64,000 nt of DNA from Trypanosoma brucei (lineage: Eukaryota), in the NCBI GenBank assembly GCA_000002445.1, contig CM000208.1, positions 2,528,001-2,592,000 on the forward strand. Direction: 5' to 3'. The position numbers were made by a program, and so were the translations under genes. Under the pieces are notes generated by a model, which had not been told where the DNA came from, searched no databases, and saw nothing but the letters and a program-made list of their open reading frames with translations. Of the stretch, positions 3,777 to 38,222 are shown piece by piece (the stretch's first letter is position 1; the number at the start of each line of letters is the position of its first letter).

Positions 3777-4253
<477 letters not shown>

Positions 4254-4684: not shown

Positions 4685-5161
<477 letters not shown>

Positions 5162-5587: not shown

Positions 5588-6064
<477 letters not shown>

Positions 6065-6495: not shown

Positions 6496-6972
<477 letters not shown>

Positions 6973-7403: not shown

Positions 7404-7880
<477 letters not shown>

Positions 7881-8305: not shown

Positions 8306-8782
<477 letters not shown>

Positions 8783-9208
8783 TCAACGCACAGGTAACAC
8801 GAGGGCAGCGCACGCAAGTCAAAGGGGAGAGGAAGATTATGTGACCGCACAGCAACAGCAGCAAGCGCGGGTAACAGCTGACAGCGACTTCTTTGCCATG
8901 ACACGCTGCCTTGCATAGCAGTACATAGCGCCTGCGGCCACACCGATACATACACACTGTGAAATGCGCTAGCGGTGCCAAAAGCGAATGCGAATGCCTT
9001 CGTGTCAGCGCGTGGACCACACGCACACACACACACACGAAAAGAACGAAGGCAGCGGCACATTCCGGCAAACAGTGAAATCTATCACCACCACAAGGAG
9101 AGGGTATGGTGGGGGGAAAATAAAAAAGGAATATCAATGCCTCACCTGAGGGGCACTGAGGGATCTAATGTCAAGGTGGCAAACCAAAGGTCTCCTGATG
9201 TAGGGTGT

Positions 9209-9685
<477 letters not shown>

Positions 9686-10116
9686 TCAACGCACAGGTAA
9701 CACGAGGGCAGCGCACGCAAGTCAAAGGGGAGAGGAAGATTGTGTGACCGCACAGCAACAGCAGCAGGCGCGGGTAACAGCTGACAGCGACTTCTTTGCC
9801 ATGACACGCTGCCTTGCATAGCAGTACATAGCGCTTGCGGCCACACCGATACATACACACTGTGAAATGCGCTAGCGGTGCCAAAAGCGAATGCGAATGC
9901 CTTCGTGTCAGCGCGTGGACCACACGCACACACACACACACGAAAAGAACGAAGGCAGCGGCACATTCCGGCAAACAGTGAAATCCATCACCACCACAAG
10001 GAGAGGGTATGGTGGGGGGAAAATAAAAAAGAAAAGGAATATCAATGCCTCACCTGAGGGGCACTGAGGGATCTAATGTCAAGGTGGCAAACCAAAGGTC
10101 TCCTGATGTAGGGTGT

Positions 10117-10593
<477 letters not shown>

Positions 10594-11024
10594 TCAACGC
10601 ACAGGTAACACGAGGGCAGCGCACGCAAGTCAAAGGGGAGAGGAAGATTATGTGACCGCACAGCAACAGCAGCAAGCGCGGGTAACAGCTGACAGCGACT
10701 TCTTTGCCATGACACGCTGCCTTGCATAGCAGTACATAGCGCCTGCGGCCACACCGATACATACACACTGTGAAATGCGCTAGCGGTGCCAAAAGCGAAT
10801 GCGAATGCCTTCGTGTCAGCGCGTGGACCACACGCACACACACACACACGAAAAGAACGAAGGCAGCGGCACATTCCGGCAAACAGTGAAATCTATCACC
10901 ACCACAAGGAGAGGGTATGGTGGGGGGAAAATAAAAAAGAAAAGGAATATCAATGCCTCACCTGAGGGGCACTGAGGGATCTAATGTCAAGGTGGCAAAC
11001 CAAAGGTCTCCTGATGTAGGATGT

Positions 11025-11501
<477 letters not shown>

Positions 11502-11927
11502 TCAACGCACAGGTAACACGAGGGCAGCGCACGCAAGTCAAAGGGGAGAGGAAGATTATGTGACCGCACAGCAACAGCAGCAGGCGCGGGTAACAGCTGA
11601 CAGCGACTTCTTTGCCATGACACGCTGCCTTGCATAGCAGTACATAGCGCCTGCGGCCACACCGATACATACACACTGTGAAATGCGCTAGCGGTGCCAA
11701 AAGCGAATGCGAATGCCTTCGTGTCAGCGCGTGGACCACACGCACACACACACACACGAAAAGAACGAAGGCAGCGGCACATTCCGGCAAACAGTGAAAT
11801 CTATCACCACCACAAGGAGAGGGTATGGTGGGGGGAAAATAAAAAAGGAATATCAATGCCTCACCTGAGGGGCACTGAGGGATCTAATGTCAAGGTGGCA
11901 AACCAAAGGTCTCCTGATGTAGGGTGT

Positions 11928-12404
<477 letters not shown>

Positions 12405-12835
12405 TCAACGCACAGGTAACACGAGGGCAGCGCACGCAAGTCAAAGGGGAGAGGAAGATTATGTGACCGCACAGCAACAGCAGCAAGCGCGGGTAACAGC
12501 TGACAGCGACTTCTTTGCCATGACACGCTGCCTTGCATAGCAGTACATAGCGCCTGCGGCCACACCGATACATACACACTGTGAAATGCGCTAGCGGTGC
12601 CAAAAGCGAATGCGAATGCCTTCGTGTCAGCGCGTGGACCACACGCACACACACACACACGAAAAGAACGAAGGCAGCGGCACATTCCGGCAAACAGTGA
12701 AATCTATCACCACCACAAGGAGAGGGTATGGTGGGGGGAAAATAAAAAAGAAAAGGAATATCAATGCCTCACCTGAGGGGCACTGAGGGATCTAATGTCA
12801 AGGTGGCAAACCAAAGGTCTCCTGATGTAGGATGT

Positions 12836-13312
<477 letters not shown>

Positions 13313-13494
13313 TCAACGCACAGGTAACACGAGGGCAGCGCACGCAAGTCAAAGGGGAGAGGAAGATTATGTGACCGCACAGCAACAGCAGCAGGCGCGG
13401 GTAACAGCTGACAGCGACTTCTTTGCCATGACACGCTGCCTTGCATAGCAGTACATGGCGCCTGCGGCCACACCGATACATACACACTGTTTGA

Positions 13495-13830
13495 TTATTT
13501 TTTTTCGTTTGATTTGTTTTGCGCATCGTAATTCTTGTTTTTTTCTGCCATTACACGTAAAATGGATCCTGTTCCTGTTATGTTATGGAGTTCTGCATGC
13601 CACAGCAGGTATGTTTTGCTGTTTTTTGCGTCGCGATCGAGGCAGAAGTAAAGAACTTTCATGAGTGTGTCTTGCTGCCTTTCGTTGATTCCTTGTAGTA
13701 CGTGTTTTATTTCACTACTGCTGGTCCCTTTGGTGTGGAGTTGACTTGATACTTCTTTTACAGCCGCTGATGTTAGTTGAGAATACGTGGTTTGCTGTAT
13801 CTGATCCAGAAGTTCTTTTAATTCTTTCAT
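13495..13830 (-). CDS. candidate small ORF (111 aa, K/E/Q-rich, helical-looking) in atypical T-rich (plus-strand) spacer; hypothetical
   Basis: ATG-initiated ORF MKELKELLDQIQQTT... of non-trivial complexity. It has only a weak upstream polyY tract on its strand (tttactcccttgcct ~150 nt upstream) and an atypical composition, so the call is low confidence. Confidence 0.3.
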   Translation of the reverse strand: MKELKELLDQIQQTTYSQLTSAAVKEVSSQLHTKGTSSSEIKHVLQGINERQQDTLMKVLYFCLDRDAKNSKTYLLWHAELHNITGTGSILRVMAEKNKNYDAQNKSNEKK

Positions 13831-21651: not shown

Positions 21652-22251
21652 TCAGTTGGTGCGAGCTGCCGCCCTAACCTTTTCCAAGTGTTCCTCATAT
21701 TCCTGTAGCCGCTGCAAGAAAGCCAGGTTAAGGGAAATGCATGGCCGCTTATCCTTCACATCATTGTGCGCATCACAAAACGACATCCCCTCCGACTCCA
21801 TTAAGTACGCCACTACGATAGCGGCACTTCTGGACATGCCGCGGCGGCAGTAAACTAAAATACGGCCATTGCGAGTTGCGCCCCGAATAAATTCGAAGGC
21901 GTCCTCAAAGTGATGTACAATATCTTCATCGAGAGAATCACTCAGTGGGATGGACTTGCTCGTAACAAATGGTACAGACTCGACACGATGCATCTCCTCT
22001 GTGTCCACCAACTCGCGTGCGACGTTCAGCGTGTGTGTAATACACATCTGACGCAGTAACTTTTCATCTGCGGCATCGCGCCATGTACCAACAAAAATCC
22101 TTTCACTGATACCACTCATAGGCACGCATTTGGCAGCGCTACAAGTCTCGTTGAGCTCTTCCTCAAGCGCGCGTTCCGCGCATTGATACACAAGCTCCAG
22201 GTTAAACGCAGGAAGACAATTCTTCGACAGTCGCTCGCGAAACTTCAGCAT
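21652..22251 (-). CDS. dual-specificity protein phosphatase (DSPc domain)
   Basis: Active-site motif VYCRRGMSRSAAIVVAYLM (HCxxGxxRS). First ATG at 'cat' 22249-22251; the track start is GTG. The true start may lie further downstream (see findings). Confidence 0.8.
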   Translation of the reverse strand: MLKFRERLSKNCLPAFNLELVYQCAERALEEELNETCSAAKCVPMSGISERIFVGTWRDAADEKLLRQMCITHTLNVARELVDTEEMHRVESVPFVTSKSIPLSDSLDEDIVHHFEDAFEFIRGATRNGRILVYCRRGMSRSAAIVVAYLMESEGMSFCDAHNDVKDKRPCISLNLAFLQRLQEYEEHLEKVRAAARTN

Positions 22252-22294
22252 GCGCCCACACAGCAGAGAAAACGGATAATAATAACAATAACAA

Positions 22295-22316
22295 ATATAT
22301 ATATATATATATATAT
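22295..22316. repeat. (AT)11 dinucleotide microsatellite in 5' flank of the phosphatase gene
   Basis: atatatatatatatatatatat seen directly, 44-65 nt upstream of the ATG at 22251. Confidence 0.95.
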
Positions 22317-23495
22317 TAATGAAAAAAGAGTAAAAATAAAATGAAATAATGAAGCTTGTTGACGTTTTCAAAAAATTAAATAAAGAGTCAGGGCACTGTT
22401 CGGCGTTGTGCCTTAACACACACTGTTACTCTCGCTTGAATGCCGCTCACTTCCACTCTGTGACCAGTGGCGGGTCGTACGAAAGGCAAAGGGATGGTAC
22501 ACAAACAAGTGAATAAAATGTACCAAAGATCGTAGCAACTGGTGTGAAGCACAGTTAACGGAAAGAGTTTTCGTGTGCAATATCTTGGTGACCGCTCCTC
22601 TCGTCCAATATTTGCTCAGTCGTTACCAATCTGACCCGCCCCTAGCGAGGTTCAAACCGCGTGTACGCGCGTATGGATATGGATGCGCAGACCAAGGTGC
22701 TTTGCGCAGCTGTATTCGCTAGCTGGCCGCAGCGACGCTGCAATATACGACCGAACACTCAGAAACAGGTCCCCAATTCGCGCACAACAATAGACGATTA
22801 CGGTTGTGGTGTATATGTATGTATAAGCGTCACACAATAGACTGAAAGTAGTTTGTTAGCACCCCGCTTTTAATGAGTAAAACGCACGCACACACTGGGG
22901 CTTTCTCGGCTCTCCCTTACCACCTGCCTAGTAGATAGAGAGGGATGGAAGAGAAACCTACGTACTTCAAGGCTTTCCTCCCCGTATATTAGGCTGAGGC
23001 CTGAATCTACCAAAATCGGGATATAAAGGTTTCCCCACCTACACACTAATACACTAAAATTGCACGTTGCTTTCTCCTAATCTTTCTCCGTTTATGGTAA
23101 CGCTACACACATTAAATGGGTTCACGAGCATGGCAAACCGCGGTGTCGATGTGGCGTGGAAACGATGAAATAAGTAAGGAAAAAAAAAGAGGAATCTATA
23201 CGGCACCCCACCTTACCCAGAAGCAAACAAAGACAGCAGCTCTCGGTACGGTAATACCCGTTCAATACGTAGTGCAGTATTATTGTACACGGGCAGAGCA
23301 GCACTTCTCCCCGCCCACACACACCCAGGTTCATCACCTCTCCCTTCCGCACGAGCTGGTGCCCACCCAAAAGCTGTAAGCCAACACTGCCTGCATTTCT
23401 TTTCCCTTCATTACTATGTCGAGCCAGTGCATTTAACGACAAACTCCCTCGATACCCCGTCCAAAGTATAACGAGTAGACGCTTTCTTTGTTAAA

Positions 23496-26477
23496 TCACA
23501 CAAGCGGAATGGAAAGCTGGACACTGTCCGAAATGCAACAGGGCCAGTCACCCGCCGCAGTCCTCCTCGACATCAACTCCAGCAACTCGTCACACAGAAA
23601 GTCACCAGCAGCACTGGGAGAAGCACTCAGCAATTGAGCCTCCACATCAGCCAGCCGCCTGCCATGCCGCTCGTCTGCTGCACCAGCAACCTCCATACGA
23701 TCTTCAGAGCGGACGGCTTCACAATGCTCGCATTGGGGTACCTGAGAAGTTCGACTGAACTTACCGCAGCAAACACAGCACCACGGCGCATATTGCAGTG
23801 TTATCGTGTCAGCGGACCTCCGCGTCCCGCAGCCGTGCCGCTGGCAGTAGCCGTCCCAGCTGTTGTTCACACTCCTGCATACGACGCACTGCCAAACATG
23901 TACCTCCGTCGATGGTACAGCAGGATGCAGTGCATAACAGCGGCGGCAACACCATCCGTGCACGGCCACGTCGCCACAAACCCCGCAGGTCCACGCCTCG
24001 TGGCGATTGAACAAAACTGGATCTAGGCGATGTACCCCACAATGCATGCACACGTCGCTGCAATTCCTCTCCGGTTTAGTCTGAAGGAGAACCCCCTCAT
24101 CATCGCGGTGGTTATGACGGCCCCCGCACGCGTGGCAGTGCCAAGGCACGTCAGGAAGTAAAGGGAGAAACTGCGAGAGCATACCCATGGGCCGCTGGCA
24201 GTTTTGGCAGCTTCTGGCACTGTCTGGTGTGAGGGAATGGCAAAATGGGCAGCGCCACAGACGCCTCTCAAACGCAGCCACATCCCTAGGATGTGGGGCG
24301 GCACACGCTGGACACTCGTCTCGCAACCCCAGACGACGAAGACGAAGCCGCCACCATTCGCGGCAGTAGACACATACACAACTTGCATCCGCCTTCCCGA
24401 AACTGCACACACTGCACCACCGACGAAGCGGACTGTTCACGGCACCACAACCACATTTCCACTCAAAAAAACTTGCCGCCCAACCCGTATCGCCAGCACC
24501 ACAGTCCATACAAGTTTGAACCTTTGAATTGTTTCTGGAGACCCCCAGTTGAGAATAAGAATGGCAATAATCACACGCCCAAAGGCACGGTGTTGCGGCG
24601 CCACCGTGGGTCTTTACACACAACACTCTGTTGTCATGCTCCACAGAGAGCCCGCGAGGATGGGGATGGCTACAAGCAAAGCAGGTATCAATGTAATCCC
24701 CCGAAGAAGACACCCAAGAACAATGAGGACACGTCCATGCATGTTCGACCAAATGACGCGAAACACAAGCAGCGCACGAAACAGCCCCCAACTGGATGGG
24801 ATTCACGCATTCACAACCACAAGTCCACGAAGACGCGGCCTTCATCCCTGCCTTAAGCCCCTCTGCCTCACGCTCTAGCTGATTTAGCGAGAGCCAAGGT
24901 AGGAAGCTGGTTAAGTGCGTTAGGGGAGCGTCACAGATGGTCATACGCAGCGGTCTCCCAATCAGTAATCCCCATTTCACCAGTTCACCAGCATACTTCC
25001 CCAGGGCGGATGCAGACCGTACAACATCAAACAACGCGGAGGCTATGCGTGCGCCTAAATTCACTATTCCGTAGTGTGCCGCGCGGCGATGATGCGGATG
25101 ACCACTGGCAGCAACGTACATCTCATCTCCAACAATCTTCCGATGGCTAAGTAGCACCTCCAACTCATTCCAAATAAAGCTGCGTCGATTGTCCCGCGCC
25201 TCCGCGATGGCCTCCTCACAGAGCAGTAATTCCAACACGGCGGCCACAGTACAAACGTCCAAAAGTCCTCTCATCGGACCGAAGTGTAGCGCCTTACACT
25301 TGGCTAACATACTGCTTACACCAGCATCCCGGAGGACCCTCAACAAACTACAAGCGGCGACTGCTGCAGAATCGCATGCCGAAGATGCTCCAGCTCCACC
25401 TGAGTTTCCCCCCTCTTTGCAAAAAGAACGAAACACACTCATCATCGTTAATATGGCTTCTCGGTAGCGATCACCTTCCGCGTTGTCGTTCCTGGCGAAG
25501 ACGCATGCGTTCATGAGAATCCCCGCTGGCCGTGTCATCAACGCTGAGATGTCAGTTACCTTCCAATTCAGTTGACGGAAGAGCTTTCGAAAAGCAAACG
25601 CCGCGTACTCAAGTGTTGATGCCCACCGCTCATCACGACCCATTCCTGACTCCCGTCGCCCAGGTATTGTGAGGTAATATTCAAACACATCAACGTCATT
25701 CACCAAAGCGGTGCCACACGTAGGCATAACGAGTTCCTCACCCTCAACAGCAGCACGGAAGAACTCTGCATACTGAAGGAGTCGGCACTGCTCAGAGTAC
25801 AGCTTACGAAGCTTGCGGACCAGGACGGGTGGCATGCGCGTCACGGTGACGTCATCAGCAAGGGGTGGAAGAAGCTCCTGCAAACGTAAAACATCGGTAT
25901 AGTAGTCCCGAACAATTGCTAGAAGTTCCCGGTGAGCCTGATCAAAAGCCGATGGCTCCGCAAATGCAGGGTTGGAAGCGATTGCAAAGAACACCTGGTG
26001 CCAGTAGTGTAACCGTTCACTTGGTTCAGCTGCCCCGCCATGATCAATGGCGGCACGCCAGGTAGATGGTAGCAAAGAACGCAACGCGGAGACATCTCCT
26101 CTTATCACAACTGTCGGCGAGCTCCCCGCACTGTCACGCCACAACCAAGGCAAGTGGTCGTGGTGAACGGAGGGCACTAGGTACCTGGCGATCTCACGTC
26201 TCCTGCGCTCATCCATCAGCGCACCTCGTCGGTAGAGCAACTGAAGGAACGGAATTAGCAGGGGGCGGTTGGCATTGTTAAGCAAGGCCTCGGGTGAGTG
26301 TTGAATAGCCTCCGTACTGGTGGTGAGCGCCGTAAAGGAAAGTCCATCATCCCACAAATCGGCAGATATAACAAGTTGTAAGTCGCTTGAGGCAGCGCCC
26401 ATGCCAATCGAGTGCTTTTTCGCATATCGACACGTGGCAAATATGCGCTTTGGGACCCCTGACGGTTTCCTCAGCAT
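23496..26477 (-). CDS. large protein with C-terminal array of ~8 RanBP2-type zinc fingers (W-x-C-x2-4-C-x3-N-x6-C-x2-C)
   Basis: Repeated WTCGCECVN...CAAC, WTCPHCSW...CFAC, WACDYC...CMDC, WKCGCGAVN...CSVC, WRCPFCHS...CQNC, WHCHACGG, WTCGVCGD...CRRC and WQCVVCRSVNN...C. The ATG at 26475-26477 is genuine. A second ATG at 26400-26402 gives MGAASSD. Confidence 0.8.
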   Translation of the reverse strand: MLRKPSGVPKRIFATCRYAKKHSIGMGAASSDLQLVISADLWDDGLSFTALTTSTEAIQHSPEALLNNANRPLLIPFLQLLYRRGALMDERRRREIARYLVPSVHHDHLPWLWRDSAGSSPTVVIRGDVSALRSLLPSTWRAAIDHGGAAEPSERLHYWHQVFFAIASNPAFAEPSAFDQAHRELLAIVRDYYTDVLRLQELLPPLADDVTVTRMPPVLVRKLRKLYSEQCRLLQYAEFFRAAVEGEELVMPTCGTALVNDVDVFEYYLTIPGRRESGMGRDERWASTLEYAAFAFRKLFRQLNWKVTDISALMTRPAGILMNACVFARNDNAEGDRYREAILTMMSVFRSFCKEGGNSGGAGASSACDSAAVAACSLLRVLRDAGVSSMLAKCKALHFGPMRGLLDVCTVAAVLELLLCEEAIAEARDNRRSFIWNELEVLLSHRKIVGDEMYVAASGHPHHRRAAHYGIVNLGARIASALFDVVRSASALGKYAGELVKWGLLIGRPLRMTICDAPLTHLTSFLPWLSLNQLEREAEGLKAGMKAASSWTCGCECVNPIQLGAVSCAACVSRHLVEHAWTCPHCSWVSSSGDYIDTCFACSHPHPRGLSVEHDNRVLCVKTHGGAATPCLWACDYCHSYSQLGVSRNNSKVQTCMDCGAGDTGWAASFFEWKCGCGAVNSPLRRWCSVCSFGKADASCVCVYCREWWRLRLRRLGLRDECPACAAPHPRDVAAFERRLWRCPFCHSLTPDSARSCQNCQRPMGMLSQFLPLLPDVPWHCHACGGRHNHRDDEGVLLQTKPERNCSDVCMHCGVHRLDPVLFNRHEAWTCGVCGDVAVHGWCCRRCYALHPAVPSTEVHVWQCVVCRSVNNSWDGYCQRHGCGTRRSADTITLQYAPWCCVCCGKFSRTSQVPQCEHCEAVRSEDRMEVAGAADERHGRRLADVEAQLLSASPSAAGDFLCDELLELMSRRTAAGDWPCCISDSVQLSIPLV

Positions 26478-26750
26478 GGCGCCGCTCCCATTCGTTAGTT
26501 ACGCGCAAGCGCATCGACAAAAACACAGGTAAAAACGAAAAAAAAAGAGGCACAAAAAGTTAGAATGAAGAAAAATATGATTTTTCTTTTCAGTGGAAAT
26601 AAGGAGGTTGGGAAACAGACACGCGGTGGAGGAAGGCAATATTGCAACCATGAATAACAATGGGTACACGCGGAAGGGCTTATTTCCGTTATTGACTGCC
26701 ATCAAACTGTACAAACCAACCCTGTCGACAAAGGTGGTCCTCCAATGTCT

Positions 26751-27328: not shown

Positions 27329-28480
27329 CTAGTCCGAGTCGTCCCACTCACTGCGCTCCGTTGGGTTCACGTCGAGCCTCTTGTCGTAGACATACCCCGG
27401 GTCACCGGGCCGAAGGGCATTCTGCATGAAGCCCTCGTTCATTTTTGCTTTGAACTCCTGAAGGGTGATATCGTCAGCATCATTAAGGTCTACATTCTTC
27501 AAGGCCGCCTCTGGATCGCGGTAAAGAAGGCCAACATCAGCCTTATTTACCTCCGGCTCTCCAGTTTTTGCCGAAGTCATATGCTGCTCTTCCTCACCAG
27601 TGTTGTGTGCAGCGGGCGCGTTGTCTGAATATCCAATCTGCTGCTTCCAGTCAAACTGAGGTTGAAGAGGACCCTCTGGTTTAACCGTGCTGGCGTGACT
27701 CTCCACACTCTTCCGCATCAACTCTTGTAGGCGCTGAAGGTATGAACGTAATTGGGATTCGCTAACCAGCATCCCATGCGAGCGGACCAAGCGCCTGAGC
27801 AACGGTGCTATTGGGGAATTCTCATGGAGCAGGCCATCAAGTGGAATGAATCGGCGACGCGGCCTCCCATTATACGTGTAAAATATAAGAATCTCCACCG
27901 GCTGAACGCGCAGACCAATACTTTTCACGGCAACAAGTCCATCCTTCAAAGAACTTGACGGGGCGGTTTTGTCGCTTTCCCACCATCGTGAAGGGGTAAA
28001 AGAGTCGAGCACAGGTCGTTCAATAAGGTCACTAGCTAGCTCATCGGCACTAATGGAAACGCAGCCCTTCTCGTTAAGGTCCTTCACTCGACAAGATGCA
28101 AACCGTTCCAGAACAGTGCTCGGGATGTTGCTAGTTAGCATGGCGGCACTCGTGACGATAGCATCTGCATACTCGCTAACCCTGCAACCTTGTGGATACA
28201 AACTGAGTGTCACCTCACGGGCCTCCTGCACGTCATTATCGCGTTCCCCACGCAAACGCTGCCTCAGCGAAGCATAGCGTTTGGTCATATCTTGGTACCA
28301 CTGGGTACCGCTCAATGTCGCCAAACTGAGGTAATTGGAAGAGTCATCACTGCCACAACAGCTGCTGCGGGTACGCAAAACTAACTCGTGAAATGCTTTC
28401 AGAGGTTCCTCGCTGTACTTCGCGTAGAGGTGACACACAAAAACTGACAGTTCCAGTCCCAGATCAGACACAAACTGCAT
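27329..28480 (-). CDS. hypothetical conserved protein (383 aa); C-terminal DPGYVYDKRLDV motif is weakly CEP19-like
   Basis: First ATG at 'cat' 28478-28480 (MQFVSDLGLELS...); the track start is TTG. No confident domain. The C-terminus EFKAKMNEGFMQNALRPGDPGYVYD resembles the CEP19 tail only by my recollection. Confidence 0.55.
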   Translation of the reverse strand: MQFVSDLGLELSVFVCHLYAKYSEEPLKAFHELVLRTRSSCCGSDDSSNYLSLATLSGTQWYQDMTKRYASLRQRLRGERDNDVQEAREVTLSLYPQGCRVSEYADAIVTSAAMLTSNIPSTVLERFASCRVKDLNEKGCVSISADELASDLIERPVLDSFTPSRWWESDKTAPSSSLKDGLVAVKSIGLRVQPVEILIFYTYNGRPRRRFIPLDGLLHENSPIAPLLRRLVRSHGMLVSESQLRSYLQRLQELMRKSVESHASTVKPEGPLQPQFDWKQQIGYSDNAPAAHNTGEEEQHMTSAKTGEPEVNKADVGLLYRDPEAALKNVDLNDADDITLQEFKAKMNEGFMQNALRPGDPGYVYDKRLDVNPTERSEWDDSD

Positions 28481-28987
28481 TTGCTGCACCGCCTGTTCCC
28501 CCTCTCCTGATTCTTGGACATGTCCAAAAGCCAAAACAAAAAAGAAGGTTGCACCCGTGCCAAATAAGAACAAAGACGCAGGAATATGTAAAACAAAGCG
28601 AAAAGGAAAGAAATCGAACGCCGGCCTACAAAGCAGTCACCCCGTATGCAGAACGCGACAAAACACCATTAGATCATATTTCCACGCACACACAAACACA
28701 AACACACAACAGCAGATACGGCAGAAAAGAAGTGAGAGAACGTAGGACCTACATGCAGCGTCGGTACTGAGAAACACAAGGGCACATCCAACCCCTTCCA
28801 CCTCGCCTAAGTGGGTACACACACGCCTCCACGCACCCATCACATCCTGTGGTTTACCATACAAACACGTGCAGCCCCCTTGGTCTCCATTTGTCTCTCG
28901 ACCTTTTGCTTGCACAGCGGCACCCTCAGCCGTTCACGGGCGCAGGCAACAGCTGTACACGTGTAACGCTACAGCTGAGGGCACCGT

Positions 28988-30055
28988 TTATCTTAAATTC
29001 CGTCGCGGCCGCTTCCTTCTCCGTCTCTCGTAAGTATTGTTTCCCGCACCCCGCAGTACAGGGGGGTCAAGCCACGACAACATCTTCAATCGCACCAGTT
29101 CACGCTGTCTCACACCCTCTTGGTGGCTGGCGGCCCGTCTATTCGCATCGATGCGTGCAAGCACCGTGGCGGTGCTAGATACAAGACGCAACGCCTTGGG
29201 CCGAAGCTGCGGCGGGTGGTTAACAACAAAATCAGAATTACTTAAAAATCCAGTGGTTTTAAGCGCGATACCGCTACTGTTGGCGCGCGTGCTACCGAGC
29301 CGAGACAATTCTGTTGGATCCATAGCTGCAAGCGGTGCTACGCCCCCTGCAATAGCGAAGAGCTGGGAGGTGATCCCAGTGCCAAGAAAGGCACAAAGGT
29401 TTGGACAGATGAGTGGCATCGACCGCTGGATGTATTCCAGAAAGGTTTGCTTCGCCGCTTCGAGTGTTTCTATCTCCTGACACGCTTCGAGCACACGCTG
29501 CAGCTCCTCAGGTGACAGCTCACGTCCTGTGGTAGTCGATGCGCAAGCGATGATAACAGCGGTAAGCTGCGAGGGCACCAACTCATCAAGCTGATCAATT
29601 ACCTGAGAAAGGTCCATATTGTTCTGCAGAAGCTGCACCACACGTGCATAGAGAAGACCGGAAGTAAAAAACATGGCAAGCTCTGGAAACCGCTGACTGT
29701 AGTGAGCCCGTGCGTAAACAACCGCCTTACTCTTTTCAACCTCAATGCGCAGTACAAGGTTGCTTGAGTCAATCACAAACTGATATTCGGGGTCATCCGG
29801 CGTTATCGTGTTCTTCACGTTTTCCTGCTCACTGTAGTCGCTAAGTTTCTGCAGCATACTGCTCATATGGCCAGACCGCAGCAATGCAGTTACTTCCTTC
29901 ACGCTATTGTGTCGTCTTGCATCATCATCTGACGCAATGGACTCCCCTACACCAATTGTCTCCTCCAAATAAATGTCCAGACCTTCATCTCTCCTGCTCT
30001 GGAGGTCGTCAACTCGCTCACCGAAACCATCCCATCCGGTTTCGATATAGCTCAT
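28988..30055 (-). CDS. PRP31: U4/U6 snRNP protein PRP31 (Nop domain)
   Basis: ICPNLCAFLGTGITSQLFAIAGGVAPLAAM...GFLSNSDFVVNHPPQLRPKALRLVSSTATVLARIDA aligns to the Prp31 Nop-domain blocks IAPNLSIIIGASTAAKIMGVAGGL...GYIYHSDIVQSLPPDLRRKAARLVAAKCTLAARVD. Basic C-tail. First ATG at 'cat' 30053-30055; the track start is GTG. Confidence 0.75.
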   Translation of the reverse strand: MSYIETGWDGFGERVDDLQSRRDEGLDIYLEETIGVGESIASDDDARRHNSVKEVTALLRSGHMSSMLQKLSDYSEQENVKNTITPDDPEYQFVIDSSNLVLRIEVEKSKAVVYARAHYSQRFPELAMFFTSGLLYARVVQLLQNNMDLSQVIDQLDELVPSQLTAVIIACASTTTGRELSPEELQRVLEACQEIETLEAAKQTFLEYIQRSMPLICPNLCAFLGTGITSQLFAIAGGVAPLAAMDPTELSRLGSTRANSSGIALKTTGFLSNSDFVVNHPPQLRPKALRLVSSTATVLARIDANRRAASHQEGVRQRELVRLKMLSWLDPPVLRGAGNNTYERRRRKRPRRNLR

Positions 30056-30449
30056 CTTGGCCAGGCTAAGCAGCACAGGGGTGAGAAGTTAAAAAAAAAA
30101 ACAGAAGAGGAAGCCAAGGGTCAGCAGGAATTTATCACCATCAAAATGCAACACAAGCAGAACGTTAAACCACATAATTATAACAAAACGGTTTCAGTCC
30201 ATATTTCCTCTCACACTACTTCTCACTCCGCTTTCCCTGGTGATGCCAAGACATGCCATGGCACCCTTCGTGAAGTGCATATATTCTCCTTTTTTTCTTT
30301 TTATTTCATCCCGACTGACGACGGCGACGGTGAGAGGGAGGAAAGGAAGAGAGAAAAATGGCAATCAGTAAAGGGAAAAAAGTAAAATAAAAAGAGCGGC
30401 ACCATATGAAAAACAGAGGGCAGGGGAATGTGGAACCGCGTGGACGCGC

Positions 30450-32351: not shown

Positions 32352-33257
32352 TTAGTACTCGTACTGAAAATATAACGGACTCTCTCTAGGCCTGCGTGCG
32401 CGCCGAAGGGCAACTGCAGAAAGAAGTAGTAGAATAAACCCACAAGCCATCAACGCACCAACCGTTGCTGGAAGGGCTGGTCGGGTGTCCTCTACAATCC
32501 TCGACCCGCACGTGTCTCTATAGATGTTCGATTCGCCGCACACCGGGGAGCAATACAACTTCGGCCACGTAATCTCCTCCAGAGTTATCGGGTCGAGCAT
32601 CACATGGCCGTCGCGGGACACAAGGTAACAAACGTGTGGCCGGATCCCAGGGATGTGCCTCGTTGCATTACTAAAACAGCACCTCCCCTTTTCGAAGCCA
32701 GAGCATTTGTAATTCGCCTGGATGTTGCAAATGAGCTCAGGTTGCTCCTGCACAGCCTCGCGCCACACCCCCGAAAGCATTGTATCCAAAGGAAGGATGT
32801 CCATCAACAAAAGGAGAAACAAAAGACCCAAGGACAGCACCGGTACCGCTGACGCCATGAGCATCACTGAGAATAGCATCGATGGCATCTTCGACTTGAA
32901 GTACACTGAGAAAATGCCGACGACTCCCAGTAAAAGGTTGAACACACCAGTACAAAGCAGAACGACCTTGAAGAGTGACCAGTGATCGCCCCAATTTACC
33001 GCCGTCGAAAACAGACCCCACACCACAAACGGTAAACATAGGGTCGCACCAAGTAATATAAAGAAGAACGAAAAGCACGAGGAACAGCAACAGTACACCC
33101 CACAGGAACGACAGCAACCGCTTTCTACCTCCTCCTCCTCGACTTGTACATACATGCTGCTCGACCAATAATCATCATTCCTAAACGCGTACGCGTCTGG
33201 CCCCCGCACATAGCCTTGGGCCGGCTCGGTCTGATCAAGCAGTTTTCCTCCGGCCAT
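32352..33257 (-). CDS. tetraspanin-like four-TM membrane protein
   Basis: ATG verified. Four hydrophobic helices (FFFILLGATLCLPFVVWGLF, LLCTGVFNLLLGVVGIFSVYF, MLFSVMLMASAVPVLSLGLLFLLLLM, VGALMACGFILLLLSAVAL). A Cys-containing large loop (KCSGFEKGRCCFSN ... CYL ... CSPVCGE) lies between TM3 and TM4. Confidence 0.45.
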   Translation of the reverse strand: MAGGKLLDQTEPAQGYVRGPDAYAFRNDDYWSSSMYVQVEEEEVESGCCRSCGVYCCCSSCFSFFFILLGATLCLPFVVWGLFSTAVNWGDHWSLFKVVLLCTGVFNLLLGVVGIFSVYFKSKMPSMLFSVMLMASAVPVLSLGLLFLLLLMDILPLDTMLSGVWREAVQEQPELICNIQANYKCSGFEKGRCCFSNATRHIPGIRPHVCYLVSRDGHVMLDPITLEEITWPKLYCSPVCGESNIYRDTCGSRIVEDTRPALPATVGALMACGFILLLLSAVALRRARRPRESPLYFQYEY

Positions 33258-33692: not shown

Positions 33693-36600
33693 TTATTCAA
33701 TCACTCCATAAGAGGCAGTCATGTTCCCTTGTGAAGTACTCTCGTATTCAGCATCCCATTCATACTGGTATTTCGCGCTTTCCTTACAGTATGAGACCAC
33801 AAGGACACAATAGGGGCTGCGACTTAACACATTATCGCCCATGTGGAACATGCGATAGGGATTTAGCTCCTCTTGAGACGCAGCCGCGCCCTCTGGTGGC
33901 TCCGGACCCCGTCCCATTTCCGCGCCGCACATGCTCCTTCCGTTACCCTCACTCACAGGGTAAACCATCACACGTAGCTTTCGTGCTGAACGTTCATTGC
34001 TTTGAAAATTGAGACGAAAGCGAAGGTAGACACGTGTTGGTGGCGTACAACGGCTGTTAGCACCCCCGCCAAAGCGTTGCAAGATGGATGTTCTCTCAGC
34101 CACTTTATCGATGACATGCTTGGCAGCCTCAGCCACCTCCTGCAATAGTTTTTCTTCAGCTTCCGATTCTGCCTGGGTTGCGTCCTTTTCGTTGGTAAAG
34201 TTTTCCAGAATGGAGGGCCACTGCACGCCGAGGTGAAAGCGAAGCTGCTTCCGGCTCTGATAATAAAGGAACTGCGGTTCATTGACTGTTCCATACACAC
34301 GTAACGTACCATCCGCAAACCTGCCGGACGCACCCTTCTCTGAGGACACAGGCGAACGTCGACGCAGAAGCAGCGAAAAGTAGTCCTTTACTCCCAACCC
34401 CCTTCTGGACCGCTCACACACCCGTTGGTAAATTCTGCTTCGTTTGCACCGACCATACGAAATTGGATTATATGGCTTGTTAGGAGAGAAGCACATTGGC
34501 ACATATGAGACAGCGATGTAGAGCCTCTTTGTTTCTTCACGGGGTTTATGATCCTGAAGACTGGCGTCAAACTCGTCACGGGTAACGAGAGGAGGCCCGA
34601 GCACTGCAAGCCAGGGAAGCGGTAGGTACAGACGGGGCACGCCGCTCGTAAGAGGTTGATTACCGACGCCAAGAGACGCCATCGGATAGCACGCCTTGCC
34701 GCCGCCCTCCAAGATGGAAAAGACACCGCCATCGTCGGTGCTGCTGTCACCACTAACAAGGCAACCATTAAATGAAAGTGAACCTCGACTGGAAGAGACG
34801 AGTGACTCAACCCCCAGTGCGCGCGCGACAAATTTAATAGCAGATGCGTCAGTAGGCAAAATGCTCTCTTGGCTTCCGAAGACCTCGCTAGTAGAAGAAC
34901 AGAACGAGCCGAGAAACAGTACAGGGTCCTTCGGCTCCTGACCGTCGAGAGCCTGGCCGCAGTTCCTGGGGTACACTCTGTATAGAACCGCCGAGCAGTC
35001 GATATTGGGTACGTTAACGCTGTTGAGATTTTTGTGATCATTCCCCATCAAGTTGTACACGTCAAAATTGACGGCGCCACCGTTTGTGGGTTCGCAGGGT
35101 CTGAGCATGAAGAGCAACGATAAGACCGACGACAACACACCTTCATGGGCGCAATAACTCCATTCAGCTGTGCCTCTTTGCCTTGGGACCTTTCCATCCA
35201 TCAACGATTCAACAAAGGCCCCGGCGGTGTTGCGCAGCGACACGGGCAGCCGCTCAAGGTTTGAAGCAAAGAAGTTAGGAAGGAAGGGTCGAGGCAACCG
35301 CACAAACGCCGAGTCGACGTGAAGATTGCTGGCCTGCTTTGCAGTTAGCGAGTTTTTAGAATTCACCAAACTTCGGTGGTGCTTGTGAAAGGCAGCAAAA
35401 AGCTGCCGAGGAAAGATGGAAACTACAAAAAGGGGGAGTCGTGGTGGCAGAAAAGTATCCAAAAGTTGAGGGAAAGGCGAGATGCGAGGCTCGCTACTTC
35501 CGACCCGTGTGTCACCGGTGCTCCCACCACCCTCCCATTCTGCAAGGTACCAGAAATCGCGCTTACCCGCGGACACACGAAAGACCTCGTCGATGTCCTC
35601 CTGATGGTTACCATCTGGCCCACTGCTCGCAGTTCCACCGGCCCTTGGCGCAGAGCGCAACCCACATATACCCGCACCGACGGGGAGACGACTATCCATC
35701 ATTTCCTGGGCGGTCGCTTTCTTAGCAACCATTTCGTTGTAAACATTAGTCAACCGCCTCCACCACTCTGCAACCAGGATGCTCCTTTGTTGCTGTTCCC
35801 GTGCCGTAATTTCAGCGAGCGCTTTGGCGAAGAATTTCAGCACCAGCGACGATATCATTGACCATGTGTGTCCCGGAGCCTCAGACGAGAGCTCCGCCGG
35901 CACCCACCACTTCGCTCCCAGTTCAAATAAAACACTCTTTCGCGTTCCGCGGCGATCATCGACACCCTGCATCTCATTACCCATAAGTACCAATATATCA
36001 CCCACATACCCCTGGTCTCCGTTGACAGTAGCAACTCCCACTGGAATACAAAACACATCACGATAAGCAAGTCCCTCACTCCACTTCCGCAGTTCTTCTG
36101 TAAAATCCCCCGTTTGCCGCTTGGAGTTGTCCACTTTGAAGTAGAAGTCGATTTTGGAATGATAAATCTTCTCGGATGACAGTGCATCCTTCTCGGGCCG
36201 ATCTGAATCGGCTTCCAGATCAACTGCATGCTCTTCGACCACACTCTGTCCCTCGCTTACCACTACCCCCTCGGTACCTGTCACATTTTTGCCACCAGGT
36301 ATCGAATCGTCCCCTTCATCGTCATCATCAGATGACGACGACACCTCCTCGTTATCAACCATCTCCTGCGTGTCCGACAAGAGGTAAACCGCCCGCCGCT
36401 CCAACTTTTTCTCCTGGCCTTGAAACTCTACAAATATGTCGAGGGCGAAAACCATCTCATTCTCGCGGTCCTCCAACCGCAAATCCACTGTCACCTCCGT
36501 TTGAAAAACACGATCTACTAACCGCGTCATTTTGGAGGTGTCGGCAGCGGTTGGCTTTTCAGGAGTGTATTTACCCGGCCAATACTTCCTTTGGACGACA

Positions 36601-38222
36601 CTAAGAGCCGGCGCCTCACCGGACAGAGCAACACTTGGTGAGTTGTCGTATTTAATCCTAATTTGGGCTTTGCGGCCCTGAACAACCTCCTCCGGAGGAG
36701 CGACCACGATGGTGCCGAGAGTCCTTTCCTCTTCCCTGCCAACCACTTGCAGAATAGTTTCATCAGTAAATATGGCGTCAACCTCAACACGAAGGAAGAG
36801 AGAACGGTCCTGTCCACTCATCCCAACTGATTCCAACCCACCAGCATGCGTGCTAGCCTTGGACCCAGAAGAGACTCCTATACATTCTTGGACTAGTGAC
36901 AAACTCTTGAGAGTTCCCTCGAAAGTTACATTCTGCCGCACCGGTGCCGTAATACTCCAGATCGTACGCATGGGACGCTCCACGTGAGTGCGCAACGGAC
37001 GACTTTCGCAACTCTGGAATATGTTACCAGCGAACATTGTGGCTTTCCACAGCGCAGCCAAGGTCGGGCCCTCAAACCACGCCTGACCCAAGAAACTTTC
37101 GAGGGCACGTTCAATGCCGCCAGGACCTGGTGAGCCACCAAGTAGCCAATCCCTGGCGCCCCCACTTGGGGCGACTGGTCGAGAGAAAATGGTACGACAA
37201 CGCTCACTGGCAGCACGTAAAATATCATGGAAGTTACTTGACCGCGGCACAGCCGCCTCCACGACCTGGCGCACAAGTCCGTGACCCTGACGCACCAACG
37301 AGCACCCAACGTCTTCAGTGGCATCTCCTTCCCGGGCAAACGACGTAACACGAACAGTTGACCGCACGCACCGCAGTTGGTCGTGTGAAAAGAGCTGGGT
37401 GCTATTAGCGACCTCCATTTCTGAGGGAGAGAGAGAGTGAACACAAACCTCAACCTGGGAAAAGAGGAGGTTCTTTTGAGCCCACCGCAGCGCCGCATAA
37501 CCCCCATCCGTTGAGGTGGAGTAACACTGCACAGCATCAAGAATGACAAGCTCCGGTAGCGGTGAGGCACCACATTCGGCTTCGCCATTGGCTGCCCCAT
37601 TACTTGTGTCCGCATTGATGCTCTCGTGGCTGGTTGCACCCCCGTTGTCATCAGCCGATTTATCGGCCCAGTGCACTACATACACATCTCCGCGCAACAC
37701 ATCGACAACCCTCCCAGCAACCACCTTACGGAACAACCCGCTGCTCTCATGCCGAGACATATCTCCCGCCCATGCGCAGGGAATCGCGGAAGCCGCACCG
37801 ACCTTCACGGGTTCTCCCAGCGCCCCTCGCTTCTCAGCATCGATAAGATCCTCAAGCCGAAAGCAAATGGGCCGTATAATACGACCAACCCCGAGAAACA
37901 ACAACGTCTCTTGCAGCGATGCCCATTCCGTTGCCTGCCCATTGGTGGAGAAAATGATGTCCCCATAACCGAGAAGTGGGAACTCTGCGTAGTAGTCTTG
38001 ACGCAGATATTTATGCGAGGCATCACGTATCATCGAAACCGCCTTATCAATAGCGCACTCGAGCACTGGCGCCGTGCCACGTGGCACATCCACAGCCGAC
38101 AACTCACAGCTGATGACTCGGCGGTACAGCGGAACTCTAACGTTGAAGACATTTTTAGCAAGCCAACAAATTGAATTAATGGGAACCAGTACCCCATCCC
38201 GCTTAACGAGGGGAGTTACCAT
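33693..38222 (-). CDS. large hypothetical protein (1509 aa); N-terminal segment loosely SNase/OB-fold-like; acidic Ser/Asp cluster mid-protein
   Basis: ATG verified (MVTPLVKRDG...). FRKVVAGRVVDVLRGDVYVVHWADKS...LPELVILDAVQCYSTS resembles a staphylococcal-nuclease-like repeat, with low confidence. SSSDDDDEGDD acidic patch. Confidence 0.55.
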   Translation of the reverse strand: MVTPLVKRDGVLVPINSICWLAKNVFNVRVPLYRRVISCELSAVDVPRGTAPVLECAIDKAVSMIRDASHKYLRQDYYAEFPLLGYGDIIFSTNGQATEWASLQETLLFLGVGRIIRPICFRLEDLIDAEKRGALGEPVKVGAASAIPCAWAGDMSRHESSGLFRKVVAGRVVDVLRGDVYVVHWADKSADDNGGATSHESINADTSNGAANGEAECGASPLPELVILDAVQCYSTSTDGGYAALRWAQKNLLFSQVEVCVHSLSPSEMEVANSTQLFSHDQLRCVRSTVRVTSFAREGDATEDVGCSLVRQGHGLVRQVVEAAVPRSSNFHDILRAASERCRTIFSRPVAPSGGARDWLLGGSPGPGGIERALESFLGQAWFEGPTLAALWKATMFAGNIFQSCESRPLRTHVERPMRTIWSITAPVRQNVTFEGTLKSLSLVQECIGVSSGSKASTHAGGLESVGMSGQDRSLFLRVEVDAIFTDETILQVVGREEERTLGTIVVAPPEEVVQGRKAQIRIKYDNSPSVALSGEAPALSVVQRKYWPGKYTPEKPTAADTSKMTRLVDRVFQTEVTVDLRLEDRENEMVFALDIFVEFQGQEKKLERRAVYLLSDTQEMVDNEEVSSSSDDDDEGDDSIPGGKNVTGTEGVVVSEGQSVVEEHAVDLEADSDRPEKDALSSEKIYHSKIDFYFKVDNSKRQTGDFTEELRKWSEGLAYRDVFCIPVGVATVNGDQGYVGDILVLMGNEMQGVDDRRGTRKSVLFELGAKWWVPAELSSEAPGHTWSMISSLVLKFFAKALAEITAREQQQRSILVAEWWRRLTNVYNEMVAKKATAQEMMDSRLPVGAGICGLRSAPRAGGTASSGPDGNHQEDIDEVFRVSAGKRDFWYLAEWEGGGSTGDTRVGSSEPRISPFPQLLDTFLPPRLPLFVVSIFPRQLFAAFHKHHRSLVNSKNSLTAKQASNLHVDSAFVRLPRPFLPNFFASNLERLPVSLRNTAGAFVESLMDGKVPRQRGTAEWSYCAHEGVLSSVLSLLFMLRPCEPTNGGAVNFDVYNLMGNDHKNLNSVNVPNIDCSAVLYRVYPRNCGQALDGQEPKDPVLFLGSFCSSTSEVFGSQESILPTDASAIKFVARALGVESLVSSSRGSLSFNGCLVSGDSSTDDGGVFSILEGGGKACYPMASLGVGNQPLTSGVPRLYLPLPWLAVLGPPLVTRDEFDASLQDHKPREETKRLYIAVSYVPMCFSPNKPYNPISYGRCKRSRIYQRVCERSRRGLGVKDYFSLLLRRRSPVSSEKGASGRFADGTLRVYGTVNEPQFLYYQSRKQLRFHLGVQWPSILENFTNEKDATQAESEAEEKLLQEVAEAAKHVIDKVAERTSILQRFGGGANSRCTPPTRVYLRFRLNFQSNERSARKLRVMVYPVSEGNGRSMCGAEMGRGPEPPEGAAASQEELNPYRMFHMGDNVLSRSPYCVLVVSYCKESAKYQYEWDAEYESTSQGNMTASYGVIE

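Follow-up and report, generated by a model that had tools for sequence, protein, structure and literature searches.

The locus and its product

The 64,000-nucleotide Trypanosoma brucei window (the whole stretch of DNA analysed) carries on its minus strand an ATG-to-stop ORF of 993 codons that appears in the ORF listing of the window at the position that the first-pass annotation had given (Table 1). Its translation is identical to the T. b. brucei TREU927 protein XP_823288.1 (Q389R0), which is annotated as 'hypothetical protein, conserved'. The gene identifier Tb927.10.10680 was assigned via the neighbouring genes and the UniProt numbering in the supplements of Peikert et al. 2017, and the accession series agrees; the neighbours include Tb927.10.10650, encoding an Fe-hydrogenase, and Tb927.10.10670, encoding a dual-specificity phosphatase. 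Full-text literature searches with the gene ID, the old ID, the accessions and the neighbouring IDs returned no paper naming Tb927.10.10680, and the ID is absent from the supplements of TrypTag, the 2026 kDNA screen, the SL-trapping study of Nilsson 2010 and Kolev 2010. The product is thus still functionally uncharacterised, and its family is confined to the Kinetoplastea, where it is found from the Prokinetoplastina through to Leishmania and Trypanosoma. A word-indexed homology search with a 26-sequence alignment of the family returned only the nine known Trypanosoma proteins.

Several other signals at the locus were set aside. The plus-strand ORFs within the gene were taken as chance ORFs, a match to DUF7445 (E = 0.028), whose 15 bits fall short of the cut-off of 27, was regarded as noise, and a scan for bacterial promoters and terminators was disregarded as irrelevant to a trypanosome.

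Table 1 Features of the Tb927.10.10680 locus (positions are those of the window)
Feature	Position	Strand	Remarks
Complete CDS, Tb927.10.10680	23496..26477	-	993 aa, 110 kDa; UniProt Q389R0, XP_823288.1; from ORF and exact-sequence look-up
Alternative upstream AG	26586..26587	-	108-nt leader; two uATGs (26514, 26491) would fall in the 5'UTR
Main polypyrimidine tract (CCTCTTTTTTTTTCGTTTTTACCT)	26527..26550	-	
Predicted SL acceptor, first AG downstream of main polypyrimidine tract	26485..26486	-	7-nt genomic leader; atypical G at -3
Conserved presequence-like segment, aa 1-28, MLRKPSGVPKRIFATCRYAKKHSIGMGA	26394..26477	-	Probable mitochondrial targeting signal
Out-of-frame ATG between ATG1 and ATG2	26423..26425	-	Opens 56-codon ORF overlapping ATG2
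Second in-frame ATG (Met26), start of MGAASSD	26400..26402	-	T. brucei-specific
Predicted all-alpha helical-repeat (alpha-solenoid) domain, aa 31-540	24858..26387	-	
Array of ten putative C4 zinc-ribbon units, aa 551-919	23721..24827	-	~370 aa
Finger 1, WTCGCECVNPIQLGAVSCAAC	24765..24827	-	W-x-C-G-C first knuckle, Asn present; with finger 2 aligned to Nup153 tandem fingers
Finger 2, WTCPHC...CFAC then conserved HP motif	24672..24737	-	
Finger 3, WACDYC...CMDC	24501..24581	-	
Finger 4, WKCGCGAVNSPLRRWCSVC	24405..24461	-	Exact x3-N-x6-C-x2-C; first knuckle C-x-C
Finger 5, CVYC...CPAC then PHPR	24303..24374	-	
Finger 6, WRCPFC...CQNC	24198..24257	-	Weak DZR and Zn_ribbon Pfam matches
Finger 7, WHCHACG...CMHC	24039..24143	-	Long 25-residue loop
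Finger 8, WTCGVCG...CRRC then LHPA	23937..23993	-	
Finger 9, WQCVVCRSVNNSWDGYCQRHGC	23829..23894	-	RanBP2 spacing except C-x4-C second knuckle
Finger 10, WCCVCCGKFSRTSQVPQCEHC	23721..23783	-	Profile alignment to TAB2/TAB3 and HOIL-1L NZF fingers
Conserved C-terminal helix, aa 931-952	23622..23687	-	RLAxVEAxLLxAA motif

The N-terminal half of the protein is predicted to form a generic alpha-solenoid. The full-length AF2 model has a pTM of 0.74, and fold searches with the whole model returned only generic helical-repeat and TPR matches, with no specific relative of the solenoid. A sequence search of the PDB with the single protein gave nothing significant, and in particular no chain of the solved T. 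brucei mitochondrial complexes, so the protein appears to be part of no solved complex.

Start codon and N-terminal segment

The reading frame offers two initiation codons. Across the genus the comparison favours the first: a 25-residue N-terminal extension starting MLRK(P) is present in all nine Trypanosoma species, each of which retains ATG1 and the peptide MLRKPxGxxKRxF..R. This includes T. conorhini, whose annotated protein is merely truncated. Codons 1-25 are about as well conserved as the rest of the protein, with 12 of 25 residues identical to T. congolense and no indels. Of five species inspected, four have in-frame stops just upstream of ATG1; the fifth, T. vivax, has none within 24 codons.

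The mRNA processing signals can be reconciled with this choice. As the first-pass annotation had noted, the first AG to follow the main polypyrimidine tract leaves a genomic leader of only 7 nt before ATG1, a layout (AG, then 5-12 nt, then ATG1) that recurs in T. brucei, T. conorhini, T. cruzi, T. theileri and T. vivax. Such brevity poses no problem for initiation at ATG1, because the 39-nt spliced leader is added to every mRNA; T. brucei 5'UTRs as short as 39 nt, in which the SL directly adjoins the ATG, have been described (Kolev et al. 2010). In T. brucei itself the acceptor is predicted at most, since G at -3 is excluded at splice sites according to the same study. At the level of sequence comparison, the evidence across species settles the start call for ATG1. 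Start-codon calls matter for localisation prediction because as many as 532 T. brucei genes (5.9%) have misannotated start codons (Kolev et al. 2010); Tb927.10.10680 is missing from the 532 listed in Table S1 of that study, in which the neighbour Tb10.406.0240 does appear. For Tb927.10.10680, calling ATG1 removes a spurious lipidation prediction.

That prediction concerns Met26, where the reading frame does indeed continue MGAASSD. If translation, or some of it, began here, Gly27 would be exposed for N-myristoylation and the protein would be directed to membranes, with the choice of ATG, made for example by an alternative SL acceptor, serving as a localisation switch. The sequence GAASSD after Met26 matches the NMT pattern G-{EDRKHPFYW}-x2-[STAGCN]-{P}; AGs occur within the opening 62 nt of the CDS, and use of that at nt 62 (26416) would make ATG2 the first AUG; the AG upstream of ATG1 carries the disfavoured G at -3; and alternative trans-splicing reportedly yields dual-localised isoforms in T. 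brucei, as is said of its isoleucyl-tRNA synthetase. We nevertheless regard such a switch as highly improbable. Met26 and Gly27 are missing in all eight other Trypanosoma species, where the Met26 column holds L, R, K, T, I or A and Gly27 is not conserved; the conserved start reads Met-Leu-Arg, and a glycine follows methionine only at T. brucei Met26. The 25 codons upstream are conserved as protein and have the character of a presequence (see below), an out-of-frame ATG precedes ATG2, and the gene lies outside the published list of misannotated starts. The fit to the consensus stands, but it carries little weight, since the PROSITE-style pattern fits 19 of the 64 glycines in the protein; moreover, NMT substrates prefer a basic residue at position 7, which is occupied here by Asp. 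The proposal that the choice of ATG decides membrane targeting is therefore not supported, and the MGAASSD lipid-anchor start is, as judged from the alignment, a T. brucei-only coincidence.

What lies upstream of Met26 looks instead like a mitochondrial presequence. All 25 residues before Met26 were considered: seven are K/R and none is D/E, figures that also hold for the first 30 residues, the first acidic residue being at position 32. In the eight full-length Trypanosoma sequences the first 30 residues include 6-9 K/R and 0-1 D/E. Across the wider family, 28 of the 39 sequences tabulated have at least five K/R and at most one D/E in the first 25 residues, and one of these 28 is from the prokinetoplastid Apiculatamorpha. 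The AF2 model gives residues 1-28 a pLDDT below 50, and they are predicted to be disordered. Both TargetP 1.1 and MitoFates are positive for Tb927.10.10680 (Peikert et al. 2017, Suppl. Data 2a), and the same table places the protein inside its mitochondrial reference set whilst leaving it unmarked in the Panigrahi/Mach mitochondrial proteome column and in the RNA-editing and MRB1 columns. The protein therefore combines N-terminal 15-30 residues that are rich in K/R and free of D/E with positive predictor calls, as a presequence should, and the segment is probably a mitochondrial targeting signal. In the 26 sequences aligned, conservation of Arg17 is at least 90%, and F or Y follows it in eight of nine Trypanosoma species (T. 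congolense has Gly-Leu). Such an Arg17-(Phe/Tyr)18 pair has the look of an MPP 'R-2' site, so the presequence may well be cleaved.

A tandem array of putative zinc ribbons

Cysteine makes up 12.6% of residues 546-925 compared with 2.0% of residues 1-545. The first-pass annotation saw here about eight RanBP2-type fingers over ~500 residues; a large tandem RanBP2-like array is indeed present, but the units number ten and the span is shorter (Table 1). Each unit has four Cys ligands in two knuckles, an arrangement that holds across the 26 sequences aligned, and the ligands of all ten are either invariant or conserved to at least 90% in these 26 homologues, whose identity to the T. brucei protein is only 22-58%. 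On the alignment, this degree of ligand conservation exceeds chance. The array as a whole is only mildly basic (pI 8.1).

The relationship of these units to RanBP2 fingers is a distant one. Pfam PF00641 (Zn_ribbon_RanBP) does not match the whole T. brucei protein at E ≤ 10, and when the fingers are searched in isolation the best result, over 7 residues of finger 2, reaches 11.5 bits (E = 0.19) against a gathering threshold of 27 bits. The zf-RanBP check by HMMER that had been suggested for this protein therefore fails. Elsewhere in the family PF00641 matches four of the 26 members at E ≤ 0.1, the best at 9.7e-5, and in the reverse direction the family profile finds P0049, a protein matching PF00641 at 40.5 bits, with E = 8.5e-4 among 1.84 billion proteins. 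When the profile is searched against the sequences of the PDB, most of the top-ranking matches are RanBP2/NZF fingers, with marginal E-values: Nup153 (E = 0.0021), TAB3 (0.005) and HOIL-1L (0.027) are followed by TAB2 and MDM2/4, and the FUS finger is found at E = 0.11. Ribosomal zinc ribbons, such as that of eL37, are interspersed among them. Homology to RanBP2-type fingers is thus detectable by profile, at these marginal E-values.

Spacing tells a similar story. RanBP2-type fingers conform to the PROSITE-style signature W-x-C-x(2,4)-C-x(3)-N-x(6)-C-x(2)-C, which has no strict match in the T. brucei protein or in the orthologues from any trypanosomatid. It is missed by one or two spacings in fingers 1, 4 and 9, which have a C-x-C first or a C-x4-C second knuckle, and more distant family members have one to three strict matches, some of which line up with fingers 9 and 10 in the A3 alignment. 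The original call of RanBP2-type fingers consequently survives in modified form: PF00641 itself does not match, whilst the deeper profile evidence supports diverged RanBP2/NZF-like zinc ribbons. By these comparisons the ten units are remote RanBP2/NZF relatives, visible only at the level of the family profile. It would appear that RanBP2 fingers can drift to C-x-C and C-x4-C knuckles, and below the Pfam threshold, yet keep all their ligands, which is a caution for domain-based annotation.

Possible function and related systems

We lean, by a little, towards the view that Tb927.10.10680 encodes a mitochondrial, probably nucleic-acid-binding factor that is spread across the Kinetoplastea. Translation would begin at the first ATG, and the first ~20-28 residues, basic and acid-free, would direct import into the mitochondrion before probable cleavage at the MPP-like Arg17-(Phe/Tyr)18 site. 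In the mature protein an alpha-solenoid of ~500 residues would then precede ten Zn(Cys)4 ribbons, descended from RanBP2/NZF-type fingers but drifted in the first knuckle of fingers 1 and 4 and the second knuckle of finger 9. In mitochondrial gene expression it would most likely serve as a modular adaptor that binds nucleic acid, RNA being the likeliest, with the fingers contacting RNA and the solenoid docking protein partners. We infer import and cleavage, and likewise that zinc is bound and that RNA is the ligand; RNA binding by the fingers is proposed by analogy only.

Both the compartment and the ligand could be otherwise. Most characterised RanBP2/NZF proteins are nucleocytoplasmic, with roles at the nuclear pore, in splicing or in ubiquitin binding, and the closest PDB profile matches (Nup153, TAB2/3, HOIL-1L, MDM2 and FUS) are in keeping with this; were Tb927.10.10680 also cytosolic or nuclear, its basic N-terminus would be an NLS or a mere basic tail, and its lack of a mark in the older mitochondrial proteome column would be expected. 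We consider this distinctly unlikely, given that two independent predictors give a mitochondrial presequence, that the basic, acid-poor N-terminus recurs so widely in the family, reaching a prokinetoplastid, and that a Kinetoplastea-only distribution is typical of kDNA- or RNA-editing-related factors. The ubiquitin-binding T-F motif of NZF fingers, moreover, is neither present nor conserved past the first knuckle. If the protein is mitochondrial, the ribbons might still bind kDNA, or act as protein-protein or structural modules, rather than bind RNA, for example in an assembly scaffold in which the fingers pack on the solenoid. The pTM of the AF2 model would suit fingers and solenoid forming a compact body rather than beads on a string, and the modest pI of the array points in the same direction. 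So do the contact residues: the canonical ssRNA-binding signature of RanBP2 fingers, N-[F/W]-x-x-R, is not conserved, finger 9 reading N-x-S-W and finger 4 N-S-P-L-R-R, and the same is true of the contact motifs for Ran-GDP, ubiquitin or GGU-containing ssRNA. Such a non-RNA role is nonetheless unlikely in our estimation: neither a partner nor a DNA-binding motif was identified, the protein is in none of the solved mitochondrial assemblies, and RanBP2 fingers have a single functional precedent in trypanosome mitochondria, an RNA-dependent one.

How does this putative mitochondrial nucleic-acid-binding factor compare with known systems? Nup153 and RanBP2 (Nup358) also carry tandem W-x-C-x2-C...C-x2-C ribbons, and fingers 1-2 align to two Nup153 fingers at the E-value given above. 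Their fingers, however, are nuclear-pore, Ran-GDP-binding modules, whereas those of Tb927.10.10680 fall below the Pfam threshold, lack the strict spacing and are joined to a presequence-like N-terminus. The NZF fingers of Vps36, TAB2/TAB3, HOIL-1L and Npl4, a ubiquitin-binding RanBP2 subclass, contact ubiquitin through a T-F dipeptide that is not conserved here; nor would one expect ubiquitin in the mitochondrial matrix. ZRANB2/FUS-type fingers read single-stranded RNA, but do so through the N-[F/W]-x-x-R signature that Tb927.10.10680 has not kept.

Closer to home is T. brucei MRB6070, a mitochondrial protein with five to six tandem RanBP2-type zinc fingers that is thought to bind RNA (PMC3384329). 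The likeness is one of description, a tandem RanBP2-type array in the same organism, and MRB6070 differs in being small (about 31 kDa) and in having no solenoid domain. The machinery for kDNA maintenance and expression is put at about 300 proteins, only a fraction of them characterised, in a 2026 paper (PMC13191291). Tb927.10.10680 is a reasonable candidate for membership, because it is functionally blank, yet has a predicted mitochondrial location and is conserved all the way from the Prokinetoplastina to the genera Leishmania and Trypanosoma. A bolder proposal, and one that we think unlikely, is that it is the founding member of an ancient family of mitochondrial proteins that read nucleic acids. 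The family, which reaches back to the Prokinetoplastina, would use ten diverged RanBP2-type ribbons mounted on an alpha-solenoid to read kDNA transcripts (such as guide RNAs or pre-edited mRNAs) or kDNA itself. Were this true, the protein would be a component of kinetoplast gene expression that has been overlooked until now, and a parallel to the plant organelle zinc-finger editing factors OZ1 and OZ2, whose RanBP2-type fingers read single-stranded RNA during organellar editing; the analogy is one of function, with homology traced no further than the class of finger.

Identity and setting of the gene

The gene is a single open reading frame whose product is identical, by exact-sequence look-up, to T. 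brucei brucei TREU927 XP_823288.1 / EAN78460.1 / UniProt Q389R0, labelled 'hypothetical protein, conserved' at NCBI and 'RanBP2-type domain-containing protein' in UniRef. Of the two ORFs directly below it, one is Fe-hydrogenase-like and the other encodes a dual-specificity phosphatase; Peikert et al. (2017) give the order Tb927.10.10650 (Fe-hydrogenase-like), Tb927.10.10670 (phosphatase) and then Tb927.10.10680 ('hypothetical protein, conserved'). UniProt accessions from Q389R7 to Q389P7 track the gene numbers (Q389R7 is.10610, Q389Q4.10740, Q389Q1.10780, Q389P7.10830), so that Q389R0 corresponds to.10680, and the phosphatase-gene coordinates of Kolev et al. (2010) place the window at chr10 (v4) 2,528,001-2,592,000. 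From neighbour anchors, the Peikert order and the UniProt series, the ORF is Tb927.10.10680, which is named in no main text across the literature searched.

Features around Tb927.10.10680 (window positions)
Feature	Position	Strand	Remark
Tb927.10.10670, dual-specificity phosphatase	21652-22419	minus	misannotated start (Kolev 2010 Table S1)
Tb927.10.10680, single ORF, 993 codons	ATG 26477 to stop 23496	minus	ORF scan
Met26 codon (ATG2)	26400-26402	minus	
Out-of-frame ATG	26423-26425	minus	56-codon ORF running across ATG2
Alternative AG	26586-26587	minus	108-nt leader, two uATGs
CEP19-like	27329-28573	minus	Pfam; same polycistron
Nop-domain / PRP31-like	28988-30076	minus	Pfam; same polycistron
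Tetraspanin-like	32352-33257	minus	Pfam; same polycistron
TbRIF5 (Tb927.10.10730)	33693-38222	minus	anchor for gene identity; same polycistron
Cytosolic carboxypeptidase M14	41264-46000	minus	Pfam; same polycistron
HAP2/GCS1 (Tb927.10.10770)	47726-49582	minus	anchor for gene identity; same polycistron
DHHC palmitoyltransferase	51509-52966	minus	Pfam; same polycistron
Adenosine-deaminase-domain protein	54873-56738	minus	Pfam; same polycistron
RRM protein, presumably TbRGG2	58434-59396	minus	Pfam; same polycistron

The homologues with a named source belong to nine Trypanosoma species, Leishmania (Mundinia) spp., Leptomonas, Novymonas, Angomonas and the prokinetoplastid Apiculatamorpha, the remaining matches being environmental or transcriptome assemblies. 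Across Trypanosoma the phosphatase keeps its place, as does the CEP19-like gene in several loci. In P0040, a 4769-aa EukProt gene model from another taxon, the zinc-ribbon protein is fused with a dual-specificity phosphatase and with a protein resembling Fe-hydrogenase, which points to conserved gene order together with a gene-prediction artefact across the polycistron. Immediately upstream of the orthologue, T. conorhini (L001:1121-2491, between it and the CEP19-like gene), T. cruzi (L002:1-1077) and T. theileri (L004:1-920) each have a called gene of ~440-456 aa with no Pfam match; in T. brucei this interval is just ~850 bp of intergenic sequence, and in T. vivax ~1 kb.

Elsewhere in the window, positions 1-13500 (minus strand) hold ~14 tandem copies of a ~908-bp unit, each with a core-histone ORF (142-aa GTG ORF, Pfam Histone E=1.7e-12), corresponding to the histone H2B cluster from Tb10.406.0330 onward in Kolev et al. 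(2010). The 182-aa ATG ORFs that overlap these in a different frame seem to be spurious.

A diverged zinc-ribbon array

Cysteine makes up 12.6% of residues 546-925 as against 2.0% of residues 1-545, and is arranged in ten units of the form C-x(1-2)-C ... C-x(2-4)-C; W-x-C opens nine of these. The first-pass annotation had described about eight RanBP2-type fingers: the large tandem RanBP2-like array is real, but its units number ten and are diverged rather than Pfam-defined. The HMM check that it proposed came out negative, with no PF00641 match from Pfam-A for the whole T. brucei protein at E<=10 and a best score for isolated fingers against PF00641 of 11.5 bits (E=0.19, 7 residues, finger 2), where the cut-off is 27 bits. 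Within the family, 4/26 members, each taken singly, match PF00641 at E<=0.1 (best 9.7e-5).

An exhaustive profile search over 1.84 billion representative proteins returned just 36 matches at E<=1e-3; outside Kinetoplastea it found only generic finger matches. Its weakest matches are unrelated proteins with accepted RanBP2 fingers, among them P0049, with a PF00641 score of 40.5 bits. In a 26-sequence alignment whose members share 22-58% identity with the T. brucei protein, every one of the ten units has its cysteine ligands at positions that are either invariant or conserved to 90% or more, and the same holds for Trp551, 673, 779, 829 and 874. The best profile matches among PDB sequences are mostly RanBP2/NZF fingers, with ribosomal zinc ribbons (e.g. 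eL37) interspersed: the Nup153 tandem fingers align to fingers 1-2 (E=0.0021) and TAB3/TAB2 to finger 10 (E 0.005-0.06), followed by HOIL-1L, MDM2/MDM4 and FUS.

Strict RanBP2 spacing is W-x-C-x(2,4)-C-x3-N-x6-C-x2-C. It occurs in no trypanosomatid orthologue and in 1-3 copies in more distant family members; in an alignment of the finger 9-10 region, some of these copies coincide with fingers 9 and 10 of T. brucei. In T. brucei the first knuckle of fingers 1 and 4 is C-G-C and the second knuckle of finger 9 is C-x4-C; finger 4, its first knuckle aside, fits x3-N-x6-C-x2-C exactly. Because of the conserved ligands, the profile relatives and the strict spacing in distant members, yet with PF00641 missed, we class the units on sequence grounds as diverged RanBP2/NZF-like zinc ribbons without Pfam-defined membership. 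Ten Zn(Cys)4 ribbons are very probably present.

Start codon, leader and N-terminus

According to the first-pass annotation, the choice of ATG would decide whether the protein is membrane-targeted. Met26 is indeed followed by GAASSD, which fits the myristoylation pattern, a loose one that fits 19/64 glycines of the protein. In the eight other Trypanosoma species the Met26 column holds L, R, K, T, I or A and never Met, and Gly27 is not conserved, whereas the first Met and MLRKPxGxxKRxF..R are kept in all Trypanosoma species compared. The one apparent exception, T. conorhini Tco025E_07578, is an annotation truncation of 32 codons (L001:2905-3000): the DNA reads in frame ...stop-SAPY-MLRKPIGAAKRRFFVRRF..., with the conserved MLRKPIGAAKRRFFVRRF start upstream and a stop codon before it. 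Residues 1-25 are 12/25 identical between T. brucei and T. congolense with zero indels, close to the whole-protein level (57%), and so evolve as coding sequence. The out-of-frame ATG between the two starts would catch ribosomes that had skipped ATG1. The 532 genes for which Kolev et al. (2010) found spliced-leader (SL) sites revealing a misannotated start include the neighbouring phosphatase; the absence of Tb10.406.0230, the present gene, is weak evidence, since a poorly expressed gene may simply have no data. These comparative data strongly favour ATG1, at which we have little doubt that translation begins; the myristoylation switch is not supported.

The 7-nt leader noted at first pass was reproduced: past the longest polypyrimidine tract (26527-26550), the first AG comes at 26485-26486. 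Trans-splicing attaches a 39-nt spliced leader. In T. conorhini and T. cruzi the nearest AG is 10 nt upstream of ATG1; the distance is 8 or 12 nt for T. theileri and 5 nt for T. vivax. In the first three species this AG is also the first one past the polypyrimidine tract, and in-frame stops precede ATG1 in the species examined, T. vivax excepted. Given the added spliced leader and the conserved layout, the short genomic leader is of no concern. In T. brucei the acceptor sequence is GGGAG, whereas Kolev et al. (2010) note that G at -3 is excluded at SL acceptor sites; the true site could therefore be 26485-26486, 26586-26587 or a minor one within the first codons. A 6-codon uORF at 26471-26491 (minus strand; ATGGGAGCGGCGCCATGCTGA, MGAAPC*) overlaps ATG1, shares the M-G-A-A start of Met26 and would be on the transcript only with an upstream acceptor such as 26586-26587. 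The phosphatase gene is another with an extremely short genomic leader, its mapped transcript 5' end lying 3 nt upstream of the revised ATG (chr10 2550251, window 22251; MLKFRERL...) (Kolev et al. 2010).

Residues 1-30 contain seven K/R and no D/E, the first acidic residue being at position 32, and eight full-length Trypanosoma sequences have 6-9 K/R and 0-1 D/E at the N-terminus. At least five K/R with at most one D/E in the first 25 aa are found in 28/39 tabulated family sequences, including prokinetoplastid Apiculatamorpha spiralis. Across the 26 aligned sequences Arg17 is conserved to 90% or more, and residues 1-28 are disordered in the AF2 model. Peikert et al. (2017) place the protein within their mitochondrial reference set, positive by TargetP 1.1 and MitoFates and with a TriTrypDB 'mitochondri' term, and leave it unmarked in the older mitochondrial proteome, ribosome, editing and MRB1 columns. 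Import into mitochondria is therefore well supported as a prediction, with the presequence as its probable route.

Fold, possible ligand and analogous proteins

The AF2 model, built from the 26-sequence alignment (mean pLDDT 80, pTM 0.74), has ~24 helices over residues 31-540, short hairpins over 548-925 and a conserved helix at 931-952. A sequence search of solved structures matched no chain to the protein, which is therefore not a modelled subunit of trypanosome mitoribosomes, of their assembly intermediates or of any other mitochondrial complex solved so far. The product of Tb927.10.10680 is a multi-zinc-ribbon protein, uncharacterised, restricted to one lineage and predicted to be mitochondrial. 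Public databases already record both its domain class and the prediction of its targeting; the protein, unsurprising in itself, is a sensible follow-up candidate in kinetoplast biology.

Fingers that bind ssRNA use the contact motif N-[F/W]-x-x-R and those that bind ubiquitin use T-F, and neither is conserved in the Tb927.10.10680 fingers. RNA binding by the array is a tentative suggestion, drawn only by analogy; the chief alternative is that the array has a structural role or binds protein or DNA. For RNA as ligand, plant organelle OZ proteins offer an analogy similar to one within T. brucei itself. This is MRB6070, a mitochondrial protein with 5-6 RanBP2 fingers that associates in an RNA-dependent manner with the editing accessory complex (PMC3384329).
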